Shown piece by piece: positions 49,441 to 53,420 of a stretch of DNA of 53,420 bases (the first letter of the stretch is position 1; the number at the start of each line of letters is the position of its first letter). The notes under the pieces are model-generated. The model saw only the letters and a list, made by a program, of their open reading frames with translations. It did not search any database and had not been told where the DNA came from. Where the stretch lies: positions 1-53,420 of the forward strand of contig CAJXKR010000001.1 of assembly GCA_913055815.1 (NCBI GenBank). The letters are read 5' to 3'. The DNA comes from an uncultured Desulfohalobiaceae bacterium. Its GTDB lineage: Bacteria; Desulfobacterota; Desulfovibrionia; Desulfovibrionales; Desulfothermaceae. Both the position numbers and the translations under genes were made by a program.

Positions 49441-49484
49441 ATTGTCGGCAGGGTAGTTATCTGTTATCAGGGACCAGGTCATTA

Positions 49485-49532
49485 GTTGTTTAGTGGTTAT
49501 GTGTTTACGTGATTACGTGATTAAGTGGTTGG
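49485..49532 (+). repeat. tandem array of six 8-nt units GTGNTTAN
   Basis: gttgttta gtggttat gtgtttac gtgattac gtgattaa gtggttgg, starting 45 nt after the giant-gene stop. Confidence 0.85.
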
Positions 49533-49610
49533 CCAGCACCCTTTGCAGGGAGAGTGCGCAGGGCTGGGCGCGATTAATGCCCAATCGCCCATAGCCTATA
49601 GCCCATAGGC

Positions 49611-49667
49611 TCGAACATCGAACATCGAACGAAGAACGAGGGACAAGGAACGAAAAAACGAAAAACG
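49611..49667 (+). repeat. degenerate purine-rich heptamer array (ARRAACG) abutting the sapC Shine-Dalgarno
   Basis: tcgaaca tcgaaca tcgaacg aagaacg agggaca aggaacg aaaaaacg aaaaacg, followed immediately by AGGAGG-taatc-ATG (49679). Confidence 0.7.
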
Positions 49668-49678
49668 AGGAGGTAATC

Positions 49679-50377
49679 ATGCTGGAAGAAGTAGTGCCAA
49701 TTCAACAGGAGAGACACGGGAACAAGAAGATAAGACCCCTGGAGAAGTTCGATTTTGCGCGGGACATACATGTGGCTTCCATACTGATAAACGAGTTTTT
49801 CAGGGCGGCTGCTGTTTTTCCCATTGTATTCATCGAGGACCAGGAGGAGGATATGTTCAAGCCGGTTGCCCTTTTGGGGCTGGAACAAAACCAGAACTTG
49901 TTCGTGGATAGCGAAGGCAACTGGAAAGCCTCTTACGTGCCAGCGGTTTTGCAGCGCTATCCCTTTACACTGGCCACTACAGACGAGGAGGACAGATATA
50001 CGGTTTGCGTGGATGAGAACAGCGAGTTGTTGAACGAACAGGAAGGTGAGCCACTTTTTGCAGAAAACGGAGAAGCTGGTGAGGTTCTGGAAAGAGTGAA
50101 GCAGAATTTAAGCGAGCTTCAGCAAATGGAGGATCTCACTCAACAATTCTGCGAAAAGCTAAAGGAGAACAATCTGTTTACCCAGTACAATATGCGCCTG
50201 CGCGAGGGCGAGGGCGTTCGTGACATTACCGGAGCCTACGTAATTAATGAGGACAGGCTGCAAAACGTCTCGGATGATTTTTTCCTGGAACTCAGGAAGC
50301 AGAATTTTTTGCCAGCAATATATGCCCACCTTGTATCCCTGCACCAGATTAACACCCTGGTGGATATGCGCGAATAG
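49679..50377 (+). CDS. SapC-family protein
   Basis: 232 aa with GGAGG upstream. VASILINEFFRAAAVFPIVFIED...ALLGLEQNQNLFVDSEGNWKASYVPAVLQRYPFTLA is the conserved SapC N-terminal core. Confidence 0.85.
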   Translation: MLEEVVPIQQERHGNKKIRPLEKFDFARDIHVASILINEFFRAAAVFPIVFIEDQEEDMFKPVALLGLEQNQNLFVDSEGNWKASYVPAVLQRYPFTLATTDEEDRYTVCVDENSELLNEQEGEPLFAENGEAGEVLERVKQNLSELQQMEDLTQQFCEKLKENNLFTQYNMRLREGEGVRDITGAYVINEDRLQNVSDDFFLELRKQNFLPAIYAHLVSLHQINTLVDMRE

Positions 50378-50499
50378 TAATAATATTCAAACACAATTTC
50401 GGTTAGTGGGGCCTTGGCCCAGAGCAAGTTTCTTGGTTTGAGGGTCGGGCCCAATAAATTTATTCATGGTGCTGAAATTTGTTTCGAGCAATAGTGTAG

Positions 50500-50610: not shown

Positions 50611-52239
50611 ATGAAACAAACATATGGCCGAGCAAGAACAAGTTGTAAGGGGACTACATACTGGGGGCTACGTGATTTTCTGCTGTTGATAATCATGATG
50701 GCGATAGTATTGGGTTTGGATCCCACAACCGGTTCTACGTTTGAGATCTCCAGGGGACTGGTTGCGGAAAATGCCAGTGTCCAGGAATACGACTACACTG
50801 AAATTTCAGGGGATACGAAAATCCAGGTATTGGGATTCCAGAATTTCCTGAACCGGGTGGTGAATGAAAACAAACAAATATTCGTAAAGAAACTGGACGT
50901 GCAAATAGCCGGAAAACAAATCCAACAAGAAAAGGCGATATTTGAACCGGTACAAGAACTCTCCTGGGATTATCAAAAGGAAAAGATACCCAATACCGCA
51001 CAACAATATTTCGATCGGAAGGGTCAAAATATATATCACAAAAAGGGGCAGAAATATTCCGCGAGTCTTACACAGTTGCTACCTACCGGTGGAGAGGCGA
51101 AACTGGAATATACCTTTGACAAGGATAACAACGACTTGGTGGAAGACAGGTATGAAATCGATGATAACGAATATTCCGCTTATATGGGGGTGACTATTAC
51201 TCAGCCCTTGCTCAAGGATGCCGGATCCAAAGTAACCCGTTCCCAGATCAAGATAGCCAAGATGAACAAGAAGATTTCCAGGCAAAATTTTAGGCAGAAG
51301 AGACAGCGCGAGTTGTACAGGGCGGTATTATCATACTGGGATTTGTATTCCGCCCAGAGGAGATATTTGTTCCACAGGCAATCCCTGGAGTTGGCGCGCA
51401 AATTGGTGAAAGAGGTCCAGAACTTGATCAAGGGAGGAAAATTGCCGTCCTCTGAAATTTACGACGCTCGCTCCGGGCTGACATTGCGGGAGACCAAGCT
51501 GGAGAAGGCCAAACAACGTTTGTTTAGCACCTCCAACAAGTTGCAGACCTTTTTTTCTTCCCGGGCAAACATGAATGAGCGTATGTATATTACCAATATC
51601 GAGCCACAGGCGGAAGAGAACGGTTTCGATTATACCCGGGCCTTGAACAGGGCCTATCAGAATCGGGCGGAATATCTCAGGGCCAAGAAGAAGGCCAAAA
51701 GGGCGGGTGTTCGCGTGAATTACCGCAAGAACCAAAATCTGCCCAATTTGGACCTGGAAGCGAGTTACGGCTCCAATAGCCTGGAAGTACAACCGGGTAA
51801 AGCACTCTCCAATAGTGTTGAACAAGATTTTCCTGCCTGGAGCGTGGGATTGCGTCTCAGTTTTCCAATTACCGGAGAAAAAAGTCAGAGCAAATTGCTA
51901 ATTGCACGCAAAAAGAAAGAGCAGGCTCGATCTGAGCTCCAGTCCGTCAGGGTGGATATAGTCAATGAAATATCTTCAAATCTGAATAATGTCCAATCCG
52001 GCTTGAAGCAATTGAAAGGCCACAAACAAAATGTCCGGTATAAAAGGAAGCTTTTGAACTCCGAACTCAAAAAATTGCAGGCTGGGAAGAGCTATGTGCG
52101 GCGTCTGTTGCAGAGGGAAAAGGACTTGAATCAGGCGTTGAAACAAAGGCTTCGGGCTAAGGTGGAATATATGAAATCCATTGCCGAGCTCAAGAAAGCG
52201 GAAGGTACAATCGTGGACTATTTTCTTCTGAAGGATTAA
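50611..52239 (+). CDS. TolC-family outer-membrane efflux/secretion protein
   Basis: 542 aa from ATG 50611 (GGGGAG upstream; the track ORF starts at 50575). Two OEP-type repeats (...LPNLDLEASYG..., WSVGLRLSFPITGEKSQSKLLIARKKKEQA...) and long coiled-coil segments. Confidence 0.85.
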   Translation: MKQTYGRARTSCKGTTYWGLRDFLLLIIMMAIVLGLDPTTGSTFEISRGLVAENASVQEYDYTEISGDTKIQVLGFQNFLNRVVNENKQIFVKKLDVQIAGKQIQQEKAIFEPVQELSWDYQKEKIPNTAQQYFDRKGQNIYHKKGQKYSASLTQLLPTGGEAKLEYTFDKDNNDLVEDRYEIDDNEYSAYMGVTITQPLLKDAGSKVTRSQIKIAKMNKKISRQNFRQKRQRELYRAVLSYWDLYSAQRRYLFHRQSLELARKLVKEVQNLIKGGKLPSSEIYDARSGLTLRETKLEKAKQRLFSTSNKLQTFFSSRANMNERMYITNIEPQAEENGFDYTRALNRAYQNRAEYLRAKKKAKRAGVRVNYRKNQNLPNLDLEASYGSNSLEVQPGKALSNSVEQDFPAWSVGLRLSFPITGEKSQSKLLIARKKKEQARSELQSVRVDIVNEISSNLNNVQSGLKQLKGHKQNVRYKRKLLNSELKKLQAGKSYVRRLLQREKDLNQALKQRLRAKVEYMKSIAELKKAEGTIVDYFLLKD

Positions 52240-52396
52240 CATTACAGCTAAACTTTAAGCCTTGCCGGGTGGTCCACTTTTGCTCCAAGTGCTTGGCTTT
52301 GCAAGCCAATCAAGTCGCACAGTGGACAACCCGGCTGCGGCTTAAATAGCTCCAAGTTATACCAGTAGCTTAATACAAAACTTTTGCTGTAATGTT
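52238..52396 (+). repeat. full-length copy of the ~160-nt MITE-like hairpin element
   Basis: AACATTACAGCTAAACTTTAAGCCTTGCCGGGTGGTCCAC...CTTGGCTTTGCAAGCCAA...GTGGACAACCCGGCTGCGGC...CTTAATACAAAACTTTTGCTGTAATGTT. Terminal inverted repeats AACATTACAGC / GCTGTAATGTT. Starts on the TolC stop codon and ends 40 nt before the adaptor gene. Confidence 0.75.
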
Positions 52397-52437
52397 AAAT
52401 TTTTAAAATTAGAATCGCTGTAAAAGGGAGGAAATTG

Positions 52438-53274
52438 ATGCATCAAGCTATTGTTCGGTTTAATATCATGGCTATGATTATTATTTGTGTTGTCATGCCA
52501 GTACCTGCTGCAGTCGCGGATACAGATCCTGCTCAATGGGAAAAAGGGATGACCGAGCCGATTCGGAAAGTGGTGGTTCGGGCCCCGGTTTCGGGTGTGG
52601 TGGACAATATTCCTATAGAGGAAGGGGACGCGGTAAAAAAAGGTCAGTTATTGGTAAGTATGAAAAATGAAATGGAAAAGTTGGATCTGGAGCGTAAGAA
52701 GTTGATGTGGAAGGACAAGACCAGAGTTAATTCCACCAGGGTGAGGGCGAAAATCTTAAAAGAGATGTATAAGAACAATAAGTCCCTATATCAGCAATCC
52801 GGGTCAATTAGTGAAGAAGAATTGAGGAAGTCGGAATTGCAGTACCAAAAGGCCAAATCCCAGTTGAAACGCCTCGAACTTCAGGAAAGAAAAGAGCGTA
52901 TCGAGTACGATATTGCCGTGCAGAGATTGAACAAAAAAAAGATCCGGGCACCGTTTTCCGGCGTGGTTTCCGAAATCGCCGTTGAAACCGGGGCGCACTG
53001 CAAGCCCCATCAAGCCATGCTGCATTTGCTCAATCCGGAGAAGTGCGTTTTGGTATGTAATGTCAAGGGAGCAAAGGCGGCAAAGGTCCAGGTGGGTGAT
53101 AATGTCGAGTTGCAGGTATACTCCGGAGGTGAGTGGTTGGACAAGAAAGGTACCATCGTATACAAGGCCCCAATGGTGCACTCAGCAAGCGGTTTGGTAA
53201 AACTCAAGGCCAGGTTTGACAATGGGAATAATCAAATCATTCCAGGAGTGAAAGGCCGAATGCTTTTGCAGTAG
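52438..53274 (+). CDS. HlyD-family periplasmic adaptor (membrane-fusion protein), short form
   Basis: 278 aa from ATG 52438 (AAGGGAGG 6 nt upstream). N-terminal hydrophobic anchor IMAMIIICVVMPVPAAVA; split lipoyl-like motifs VRAPVSGVVDNIPIEEGDAVKKGQLL and IRAPFSGVVSEIAVETG flanking a ~90-aa coiled coil. Confidence 0.85.
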   Translation: MHQAIVRFNIMAMIIICVVMPVPAAVADTDPAQWEKGMTEPIRKVVVRAPVSGVVDNIPIEEGDAVKKGQLLVSMKNEMEKLDLERKKLMWKDKTRVNSTRVRAKILKEMYKNNKSLYQQSGSISEEELRKSELQYQKAKSQLKRLELQERKERIEYDIAVQRLNKKKIRAPFSGVVSEIAVETGAHCKPHQAMLHLLNPEKCVLVCNVKGAKAAKVQVGDNVELQVYSGGEWLDKKGTIVYKAPMVHSASGLVKLKARFDNGNNQIIPGVKGRMLLQ

Positions 53275-53345
53275 CAACTGTCCAATAACTAGTGCCTGAC
53301 CGAGAATTGTGATTGAACGTAAACTTGCCCATATACAAGGAGTAA

Positions 53346-53395
53346 AAAATTTTGAAACCGCAGTGTATATTAATACATGAGGATTTCAAAATTTT
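53346..53395. repeat. 12-bp perfect inverted repeat with 26-nt spacer
   Basis: AAAATTTTGAAA-ccgcagtgtatattaatacatgagga-TTTCAAAATTTT, 70 nt after the adaptor stop. Entirely A/T-rich arms. Confidence 0.6.
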
Positions 53396-53420
53396 GCAGC
53401 TTTGATGTAGATGGGTGAGT

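Follow-up and report, generated by a model that had tools for sequence, protein, structure and literature searches.

We analysed a 53,420-nt stretch of DNA (hereafter the window; contig CAJXKR010000001.1 of assembly GCA_913055815.1) from an uncultured Desulfohalobiaceae bacterium, in which the gene for a giant LEPR-XLL protein of 9318 aa (positions 21484-49440, + strand, from the open reading frame (ORF) call) is followed on its 3' side by three co-directional ORFs. These encode a SapC-family protein (49679-50377, +, 232 aa), a TolC-type outer-membrane factor (OEP; 50611-52239, +, 542 aa), and a short periplasmic adaptor (52438-53274, +, 278 aa). A preliminary description of this DNA had placed a SapC, a TolC-like, and a short adaptor gene directly downstream of the giant gene, and ORF calls and profile matches confirmed this arrangement. 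Our analysis makes it fairly probable that the three genes stand at the promoter-proximal end of a conserved export locus that spans the cell envelope, with LEPR-XLL giants as its probable cargo. Its further components are an adaptor carrying GAF domains (GAF-adaptor), a Peptidase_M50-like membrane protein (M50), and a SecA-like protein.

Continuation of the locus beyond the window edge

No gene starts in the last 146 nt of the window, because stop codons close all three + frames; the preliminary description had noted the same for ABC (ATP-binding cassette) transporter genes and had concluded that the inner-membrane partner of the module was missing. That conclusion did not hold, as the genes for the GAF-adaptor, the M50 protein, and the SecA-like protein lie past the window edge in contig L093 and in relatives. 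L093, obtained from ENA through a cluster member of the GAF-adaptor, was 99.95% identical to window positions 51120-53291 and then differed, indicating that it comes from the same strain and was assembled independently. In L093 the OEP and 278-aa adaptor genes are separated by 7.8 kb of inserted sequence from those for the GAF-adaptor, the M50 protein (719 aa), and the SecA-like protein (663 aa), in that order. The insert region, at 2173-10205 between the short adaptor and the GAF-adaptor, contained genes for a 1989-aa Flg_new/Glug-type surface protein with a Sec signal and a C-terminal hydrophobic tail and, on the opposite strand, for a 208-aa outer-membrane beta-barrel protein. It was flanked by a duplication of about 200 bp of the GAF-adaptor 5' end and could be a genuine cassette insertion or an assembly artefact.

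The string of genes from OEP to SecA-like was also found in three more distant genomes. In L002, a Desulfovibrionales metagenome-assembled genome (MAG) whose short adaptor is 96% identical to that of the window, a giant gene lies upstream of the string; in the Desulfuromonas MAG L004 and the Azospirillum isolate genome L007 it lies downstream, the Azospirillum giant having 12,860 aa. The giants that adjoin the same type of locus in L002, L007, and a further contig, L096, are homologous to that of the window. In loci containing relatives of the short adaptor, the GAF-plus-HlyD adaptor has about 610 aa, the Peptidase_M50-like protein about 718 aa, and the SecA-like protein about 660 aa.

The window parts from L002 approximately 25 nt past the adaptor stop codon, and the JGI contig L001 stops at 53291. 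Three assemblies break or diverge at this position, which is the edge of a 135-nt element. Together with the presence of the genes in L093 and L002, this indicates that the apparent lack of an inner-membrane partner is an edge or assembly effect. The continuations in L093 and L002 contained no ABC or MacB partner, and an ABC transporter was likewise not found in L004, L007, or L096.

Components of the locus

The OEP gene is the first in the conserved five-gene order. Its ORF opens at 50575, and the start at 50611 was taken from the called gene in contig L001. The protein matched PF02321 (E 1e-38) and scored 102 bits against the TolC type-I subfamily model TIGR01844, below the cutoff of 225, and 37 bits against NodT. 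Its N-terminus carries a hydrophobic signal and has no lipobox Cys.

The short adaptor consists of a signal or anchor sequence, a lipoyl domain, an alpha-hairpin, and a beta-barrel. The hydrophobic N-terminus spans residues 8-26, and no cytoplasmic domain precedes it; exact matches in databases use an ATG start located one codon after a TTG. The protein scored 106.8 bits against the RND_mfp model TIGR01730 (cutoff 94.9), also matched Biotin_lipoyl_2, HlyD_3, and HlyD_D23, and gave 49 bits against TIGR01843, the model for HlyD of type I secretion systems (T1SS; about 450-480 aa), whose cutoff is 208.65. The TIGR01730 match covers profile positions 18-241 of 322, and since it stops at 241 the adaptor lacks the membrane-proximal domain. 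Its earlier characterization as MacA- or DevB-sized was too loose, as both MacA and DevB exceed 278 aa. Very few close relatives of the short adaptor were found, and the closest (34-96% identity) all belong to the same type of locus.

The GAF-adaptor (610-611 aa in L002 and L093) matched GAF (E 1e-8), HlyD_D23 (E 1e-18), and TIGR01730 (103 bits), and scored 57-59 bits against TIGR01843, again compared with a cutoff of 208.65. Its predicted model (predicted local distance difference test (pLDDT) 83.5) comprises two GAF-like domains, one transmembrane helix, and a short-hairpin adaptor, and the best Foldseek matches were MacA, AcrA, MexA, and EmrA (E 1e-17 to 1e-14).

The M50 protein begins with a cytoplasmic stretch of approximately 150 residues, followed by six or more hydrophobic segments; its C-terminus is periplasmic and matched the adaptors MexJ, EmrA, and MacA (E 1e-5 to 1e-4). 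The L093 protein scored 27.3 bits against PF02163 (cutoff 27.2), and all 28 relatives examined matched the Pfam M50 family. The motifs HExxH and NxNPLxRxD were invariant in these 28 sequences from many phyla, the invariant residues being H211, E212, H215, N305, N307, P308, L309, R311, and D313. The protein conforms to the site-2-protease type of peptidase family M50, whose zinc-ligand motif (HExxH followed by NxxPxxxxDG) lies in transmembrane segments, and is a putative protease. The nearest curated family was daptide_HExxH (NF041824), a leader peptidase family of ribosomally synthesized and post-translationally modified peptides (RiPPs), matched at E 1e-50 but below the cutoff.

The 663-aa SecA-like protein of L093 contains SecA_DEAD, PP_bind (the preprotein cross-linking domain), and P-loop_SecA (the second nucleotide-binding domain). 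It aligned solely to residues 45-601 of the 841-residue Bacillus subtilis SecA, indicating that it lacks the wing domain, the two-helix finger, and the C-terminal tail. It retains intact ATPase motifs: Walker A (MATGEGKT), DEVD, and TNMAGRGTD. The score against TIGR00963 was 598 bits (cutoff 800), and all SecA and SecA2 equivalog models were below their cutoffs. By hydropathy, neither the SecA-like protein nor SapC contains membrane segments.

In some MAGs genes of the locus were split: L035 has the GAF-adaptor and the SecA-like gene each in two ORFs, and L004 (identical with L017) has the GAF-adaptor in two. This suggests decay or sequencing errors in these MAGs.

Distribution and association with LEPR-XLL giants

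One genome per species was scanned with an M50 alignment, which gave 212 M50 relatives in species-representative genomes; 80 of them were kept, and their loci were annotated with custom hidden Markov models. The order OEP, short adaptor, GAF-adaptor, M50, SecA-like was near-universal in these 80 loci, whose hosts belong to Desulfobacterota, Nitrospirota, Verrucomicrobiota, Terriglobia, Omnitrophota, Planctomycetia, Kiritimatiellae, and Gammaproteobacteria. No RND, ABC, or MFS (major facilitator superfamily) pump adjoined any of the 80, and no conserved small precursor or modifying-enzyme genes were seen beside the five genes. Within +/-10 kb of the loci an ABC gene was not conserved; the ABC signature occurred in 3 of 4811 ORFs, and an ABC transporter was rejected as a neighbourhood partner.

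The association with giants was assessed with a strict leader motif, LEPRx[LM][LMF] in the first 150 residues of an ORF that starts at most 1.5 kb after the SecA-like gene on the same strand. Such an ORF was present directly 3' of the SecA-like gene in 17 of the 49 loci with at least 1 kb of sequence past that gene. Among 1354 candidate ORFs, all 17 with the strict motif occupied this slot on the same strand, and they came from several phyla. A leader profile search added three downstream ORFs, for a total of 20 of 49 loci, and two divergent upstream ones. Like the window, several further loci carry a big ORF on the upstream side, which is open-ended.

The 19 leaders aligned from different phyla share a basic N-terminus and the consensus (F/Y)xLExLEPR(I/L)LLS(A/G)(D/E), after which conservation fades; the leader has no hydrophobic core of the kind typical of Sec signal peptides. 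In the window, the N-terminal LEPR-XLL leader, a putative export or processing signal, occupies residues 1-32 of the giant (21484-21579, +; MSKDNLINQFILEPLEPRLLLSGDPVSGALQA), and the giant N-terminus matched the LEPR-XLL model NF012209 at residues 10-31 with 32.2 bits (cutoff 17). No common C-terminal signal was found among the big ORFs near the loci. The export signal is more likely N-terminal than of the C-terminal RTX type.

The sole Pfam domain of the giant was Laminin_G_3 (about residues 7439-7598). The Ig-like domain proposed for its C-terminus had no Pfam match. Of the RTX-like nonapeptides described near the N-terminus, three GGxGxD motifs do exist (residues 400, 421, and 604), but this number is not clearly above chance (mean 0.8 and maximum 4 in shuffled sequences), and a HemolysinCabind domain was not found in the giant with Pfam. 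An RTX block was accordingly rejected at the Pfam level. In L002 (positions 1-6193) the giant is broken into ORFs of 8433 and 1262 aa, the end of the latter being 86% identical to the C-terminus of the window giant; the gene may be genuinely split, or the break may come from a frameshift or a faulty assembly.

Three loci of Desulfobacterota/Proteobacteria carry, directly upstream of the OEP gene, ORFs for proteins of about 900-1100 aa (L024 1665-4949, L034 78-2804, and L047 1553-4801) with a common C-terminus ending in SSGCFIS/T, which may be another sorting tag tied to the same machine.

The locus is present in culturable bacteria, including Pseudomaricurvus alkylphenolicus KCTC 32386 (L085) and Azospirillum sp. 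(FZOP01000011), and Methylobacterium extorquens AM1 has been reported to carry it (META1p2399-2402; Kamneva et al. 2015, PMC4452313). In P. alkylphenolicus the genes are arranged as in the window, with SapC present and a giant gene upstream.

SapC

SapC of the window matched PF07277 along its full length (E 1.2e-71, profile positions 2-220 of 220) and has no hydrophobic signal sequence. Its AlphaFold2 model was of high quality (pLDDT 92, pTM (predicted template modelling score) 0.85). There was no sequence match in the PDB and no significant Foldseek neighbour (best E 0.22), and because neither search gave a match, no functional lead was obtained; judged by the model, the fold appears to be structurally uncharacterised. 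SapC was encoded in 3 of the 43 loci with room upstream (about 7%), showing that it is not a core part of the system. SapC is a cytoplasmic, accessory component.

The contexts of three SapC homologues of approximately 50% identity were sampled. In L096 the homologue accompanies a complete system and a divergent 12,628-aa LEPR giant, in L095 it lies 5 kb from a gene for a protein of more than 5618 aa, and the third showed no obvious link. In Campylobacter fetus, SapC belongs to the type I operon sapCDEF and has no assigned function.

Comparison with known systems

The core locus was described by Kamneva, Poudel & Ward in 2015 (PLoS One, PMC4452313) as a "secondary SecA_DEAD / type-I-secretion-related" locus, so that the module is not wholly new. 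Their gene set comprises a SecA_DEAD protein without wing and scaffold, Peptidase_M50+HlyD, GAF+HlyD, a short HlyD/Biotin_lipoyl protein, and sometimes an OEP; SecA_DEAD was proposed to be the ATPase and M50 a possible pore or membrane component. The locus was found to be patchily distributed and horizontally transferred, and it was noted that some components can lie elsewhere in the genome. Its biological role was called "completely unknown", no cargo was named, and neither SapC nor LEPR-XLL giants were mentioned; in the literature searched we found no follow-up study. The same five-part set was recovered here, with the short adaptor and OEP identified within the window and the SecA_DEAD, M50+HlyD, and GAF+HlyD proteins on the L093 and L002 genes beyond it. 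Our analysis adds the adjoining LEPR-XLL giants, the hosts among Desulfobacterota, Terriglobia, Omnitrophota, and Kiritimatiellae, and the invariant M50 motif. The core locus has thus been published before, and its link to LEPR-XLL giants and SapC appears to be new.

Like classical T1SS (HlyBD-TolC, or LapBCE for LapA), the locus combines a TolC-type duct and HlyD-family adaptors with a very large repetitive surface protein as its probable cargo, and one adaptor has a cytoplasmic N-terminal domain and a single transmembrane helix. It differs in that it lacks an ABC transporter and has a SecA-like motor, an M50 protease, and three different adaptor-type domains, and in that the conserved cargo signal is N-terminal, whereas T1SS cargo has a C-terminal signal and RTX repeats. 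The C. fetus sapCDEF operon is similar in that a SapC-family gene precedes outer-membrane-factor and membrane-fusion genes and a large surface-protein gene adjoins. In that true T1SS, however, the ABC transporter SapD accompanies SapE (membrane fusion) and SapF (outer membrane), whereas here the adaptor gene is not followed by an ABC gene in the same strain or in relatives, so that the analogy drawn earlier holds for the SapC family alone. MacAB-TolC is related through the MacA adaptor fold, the nearest to the periplasmic part of the GAF-adaptor, but no MacB-type permease/ATPase is present in the locus, and the membrane-proximal domain, through which an adaptor contacts MacB, is absent from the short adaptor.

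The accessory SecA2 of Gram-positives and mycobacteria is likewise a second SecA paralogue serving a few large or difficult surface proteins. In contrast, the SecA-like protein described here is far more truncated, has no SecY2/Asp partners, and is accompanied by TolC- and HlyD-type partners in diderms. West-Roberts et al. (2023, bioRxiv 10.1101/2023.11.21.568195) reported SecA_DEAD and preprotein-binding domains fused inside giants of Omnitrophota and Actinobacteria. There, too, a truncated SecA without scaffold and wing is tied to giants and proposed to aid their export; however, the module lies within the giant and has type-II-secretion-like neighbours, whereas here it is a separate gene in an operon with TolC, adaptors, and M50. 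In Chlorobium chlorochromatii, the LEPRxLL symbiosis giants Cag_663/665 have flanking sapC and tolC genes and are co-expressed with a "recently acquired" secA, and a type-I-like route through SapC, TolC, and a distant HlyD has been proposed (bioRxiv 10.64898/2026.03.19.712371); the giants were not linked there to a machine with SecA-like, M50, and GAF-adaptor components. Judged by its predicted components, the locus does not fall within classical T1SS, sapCDEF, the RND/MacAB pumps, or canonical SecA/SecA2.

Proposed mechanism and alternatives

In the mechanism we propose, the giant LEPR-XLL protein would be the cargo, and its leader of about 30 residues would target it to the cytoplasmic face of the machine. 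The SecA-like motor, made up of two nucleotide-binding domains and the preprotein cross-linking domain (NBD1-PPXD-NBD2), would bind the unfolded chain in the cytoplasm and drive it N-terminus first to a portal in the inner membrane, which the M50 transmembrane domain would form together with the GAF-adaptor. A tube docking onto the OEP could be built from three HlyD-type periplasmic domains, those of the short adaptor, the GAF-adaptor, and the C-terminal part of M50. The M50 active site would remove or process the leader, the cytoplasmic GAF domains would gate the system, and SapC may be an optional cytoplasmic factor for cargo handling or regulation.

Tentatively, and at somewhat less than an even chance, we go further and suggest a distinct secretion system, not a T1SS variant, with one-step N-terminus-first export. 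An RRE-like (leader-recognition) domain on the M50 intramembrane protease would read the LEPR-XLL leader, which the protease would then cleave; a chain of several thousand residues would cross both membranes through a hetero-oligomeric HlyD-type tube and the TolC-like duct; and SapC would be a cargo-specific cytoplasmic holdase in some lineages.

Several points weigh against these proposals. We infer the mechanism from sequence and predicted models; the assignment of the giants as cargo is inferred from adjacency, and approximately half of the loci with flanks showed no LEPR ORF in the 8-10 kb fetched. The PqqD-like match at the M50 N-terminus was weak and sub-threshold (E about 2e-3, 6 of 28 members), making the domain a lead, not a finding. 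Locus genes of M. extorquens were barely expressed in exponential phase (PMC4452313). In the strain of the window the 7.8-kb insert seen in L093 breaks the locus, and the window terminates in another, repeated element, which leaves the arrangement at this point uncertain. Because the C-terminal signals of T1SS show poor conservation, a cryptic one is possible on sequence alone. The locus encodes no known protein-conducting channel, and to our knowledge M50 proteases are not known to translocate polypeptides. Finally, the SecA-like protein lacks the two-helix finger and the wing domain used with SecY.

The want of a channel, and the fact that SecA homologues normally act with SecY, favour the strongest rival, a two-step route in which the SecA-like protein hands the giant to the housekeeping SecYEG channel, the adaptors and OEP collect it from the periplasm in the manner of MacAB-TolC with some of its substrates, and M50 is only a leader or anchor peptidase. 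A short adaptor that is soluble or N-anchored in the periplasm and the MacA-type structural matches of the GAF-adaptor would fit this route as well. We nevertheless consider it unlikely: the very parts that engage SecY are absent from the SecA-like protein, on which the earlier description of the locus agrees (PMC4452313), and the leader does not resemble a Sec signal peptide in its core. Furthermore, the GAF and M50 modules face the cytoplasm and each is joined to one of the three adaptor-type domains, which favours a continuous conduit.

Export through a classical T1SS would proceed C-terminus first, using a distant ABC transporter with the OEP and adaptor of the window, perhaps with LapA-like N-terminal retention, and the SecA-like and M50 proteins would be unrelated to it. 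The place of SapC in a type I operon of C. fetus, the OEP being nearest to the TolC type-I subfamily, and the three N-proximal GGxGxD motifs all speak for this, and a distant ABC gene would agree with the report that some components may be encoded elsewhere (PMC4452313). This explanation is quite improbable given the near absence of the ABC signature around the 80 loci, the lack of a HemolysinCabind domain and of a common C-terminal signal, the N-terminal position of the conserved cargo feature, and the fact that the closest relatives of the short adaptor occur solely in loci with SecA-like and M50 genes.

There is a slim chance that the machine exports or processes something else, for example a small peptide with a leader, a lipid, or a polymer, and that the giants are passengers on the same horizontally transferred island. 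The resemblance of M50 to a RiPP leader peptidase with a weakly PqqD-like N-terminus, the many loci without a LEPR ORF in the fetched flanks, and the horizontal spread of the locus (PMC4452313) would agree with this. Against it, small precursor and modifying-enzyme genes were not conserved beside the five genes, the 17 strict LEPR ORFs keep one fixed position and strand in several phyla, and the SecA-like protein retains a preprotein cross-linking domain, which suits polypeptides. It is most improbable that SapC, OEP, and adaptor are an ordinary drug, metal, or lipoprotein efflux module unrelated to the giant, even though the adaptor passes the generic TIGR01730 model and its relatives are named "efflux RND transporter periplasmic adaptor subunit", because no pump gene adjoins the locus, the adaptor lacks the domain that contacts RND and MacB pumps, and synteny with the GAF-adaptor, M50, SecA-like, and giant genes is kept across phyla. 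Of the two possibilities raised in the preliminary description, an atypical TolC-adaptor export module genetically tied to the giant gene is supported, and an efflux module is not.

Spacers, window end, and upstream genes

The spacers around the SapC gene were described as repeat-filled, and tandem microrepeats with units of 7-8 nt were indeed found. The giant-SapC spacer (49441-49678, unstranded) contains GTGATTAC x4, GCCCATA x3, TCGAACA x3, and GAACGAA x6, the runs lying within 49481-49668, and ahead of the OEP gene, at 50520-50546, a related unit of the GTGGTTA type is repeated. Such repeats may be regulator-binding or slippage-prone sites. The OEP-adaptor spacer (52240-52437, +) has a long nested hairpin with an inverted repeat at 52236-52256 / 52378-52398; the RNA fold of 52230-52405 gave -68.4 kcal/mol (z = -6.35 compared with shuffled sequences), and the region is largely kept in the 96% relative L002. 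The hairpin may be an RNA processing or stability element within the operon. Scans of 49300-53420 for sigma-70 promoters and terminators gave results at or below shuffle expectation and were therefore uninformative on co-transcription.

The end of the window, where independent assemblies diverge, is a multi-copy intergenic element of 135 nt (53286-53420, unstranded) with an internal imperfect palindrome at 53346-53395. A copy of 94% identity was found in L091 (10567-10701, minus strand), upstream of a moaA-like radical-SAM (S-adenosylmethionine) gene, and a shortened one in L092 (about 40-170, minus strand). The last 29 nt of the window were rejected as a bridge to downstream sequence: the exact 29-mer hit two contigs with unrelated flanks, which identified the terminal 135 nt as repeated intergenic sequence that does not continue the locus. 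No Rfam family was found at gathering thresholds for the element or the spacers in the window, L091, and L092.

On the 5' side of the giant gene (9607-12745 and 16371-19403), the window encodes a histidine kinase and a sigma-54-dependent response regulator (PAS, AAA+, HTH_8), an orphan receiver protein, and class III polyhydroxyalkanoate (PHA) synthase subunits (PhaE, PhaC-like).

Significance

LEPR-XLL giants can exceed 36,000 residues, and the Chlorochromatium consortium is held together by proteins of this kind; we know of no export route for these giants. Pairing these giants with an orphan locus that has had no cargo since 2015 gives both a testable partner. If the proposed association is true, tripartite TolC-dependent machines would not be restricted to ABC, RND, and MFS energisers, and a SecA-derived motor would be able to act outside the SecYEG context. 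If the locus is moreover a distinct one-step secretion system, the export of the Chlorochromatium symbiosis giants and similar proteins would be explained. Because the locus is present in culturable bacteria, the idea is genetically testable now, and two open questions, how the giants are exported and what the locus carries, become one that is addressable in cultured strains.

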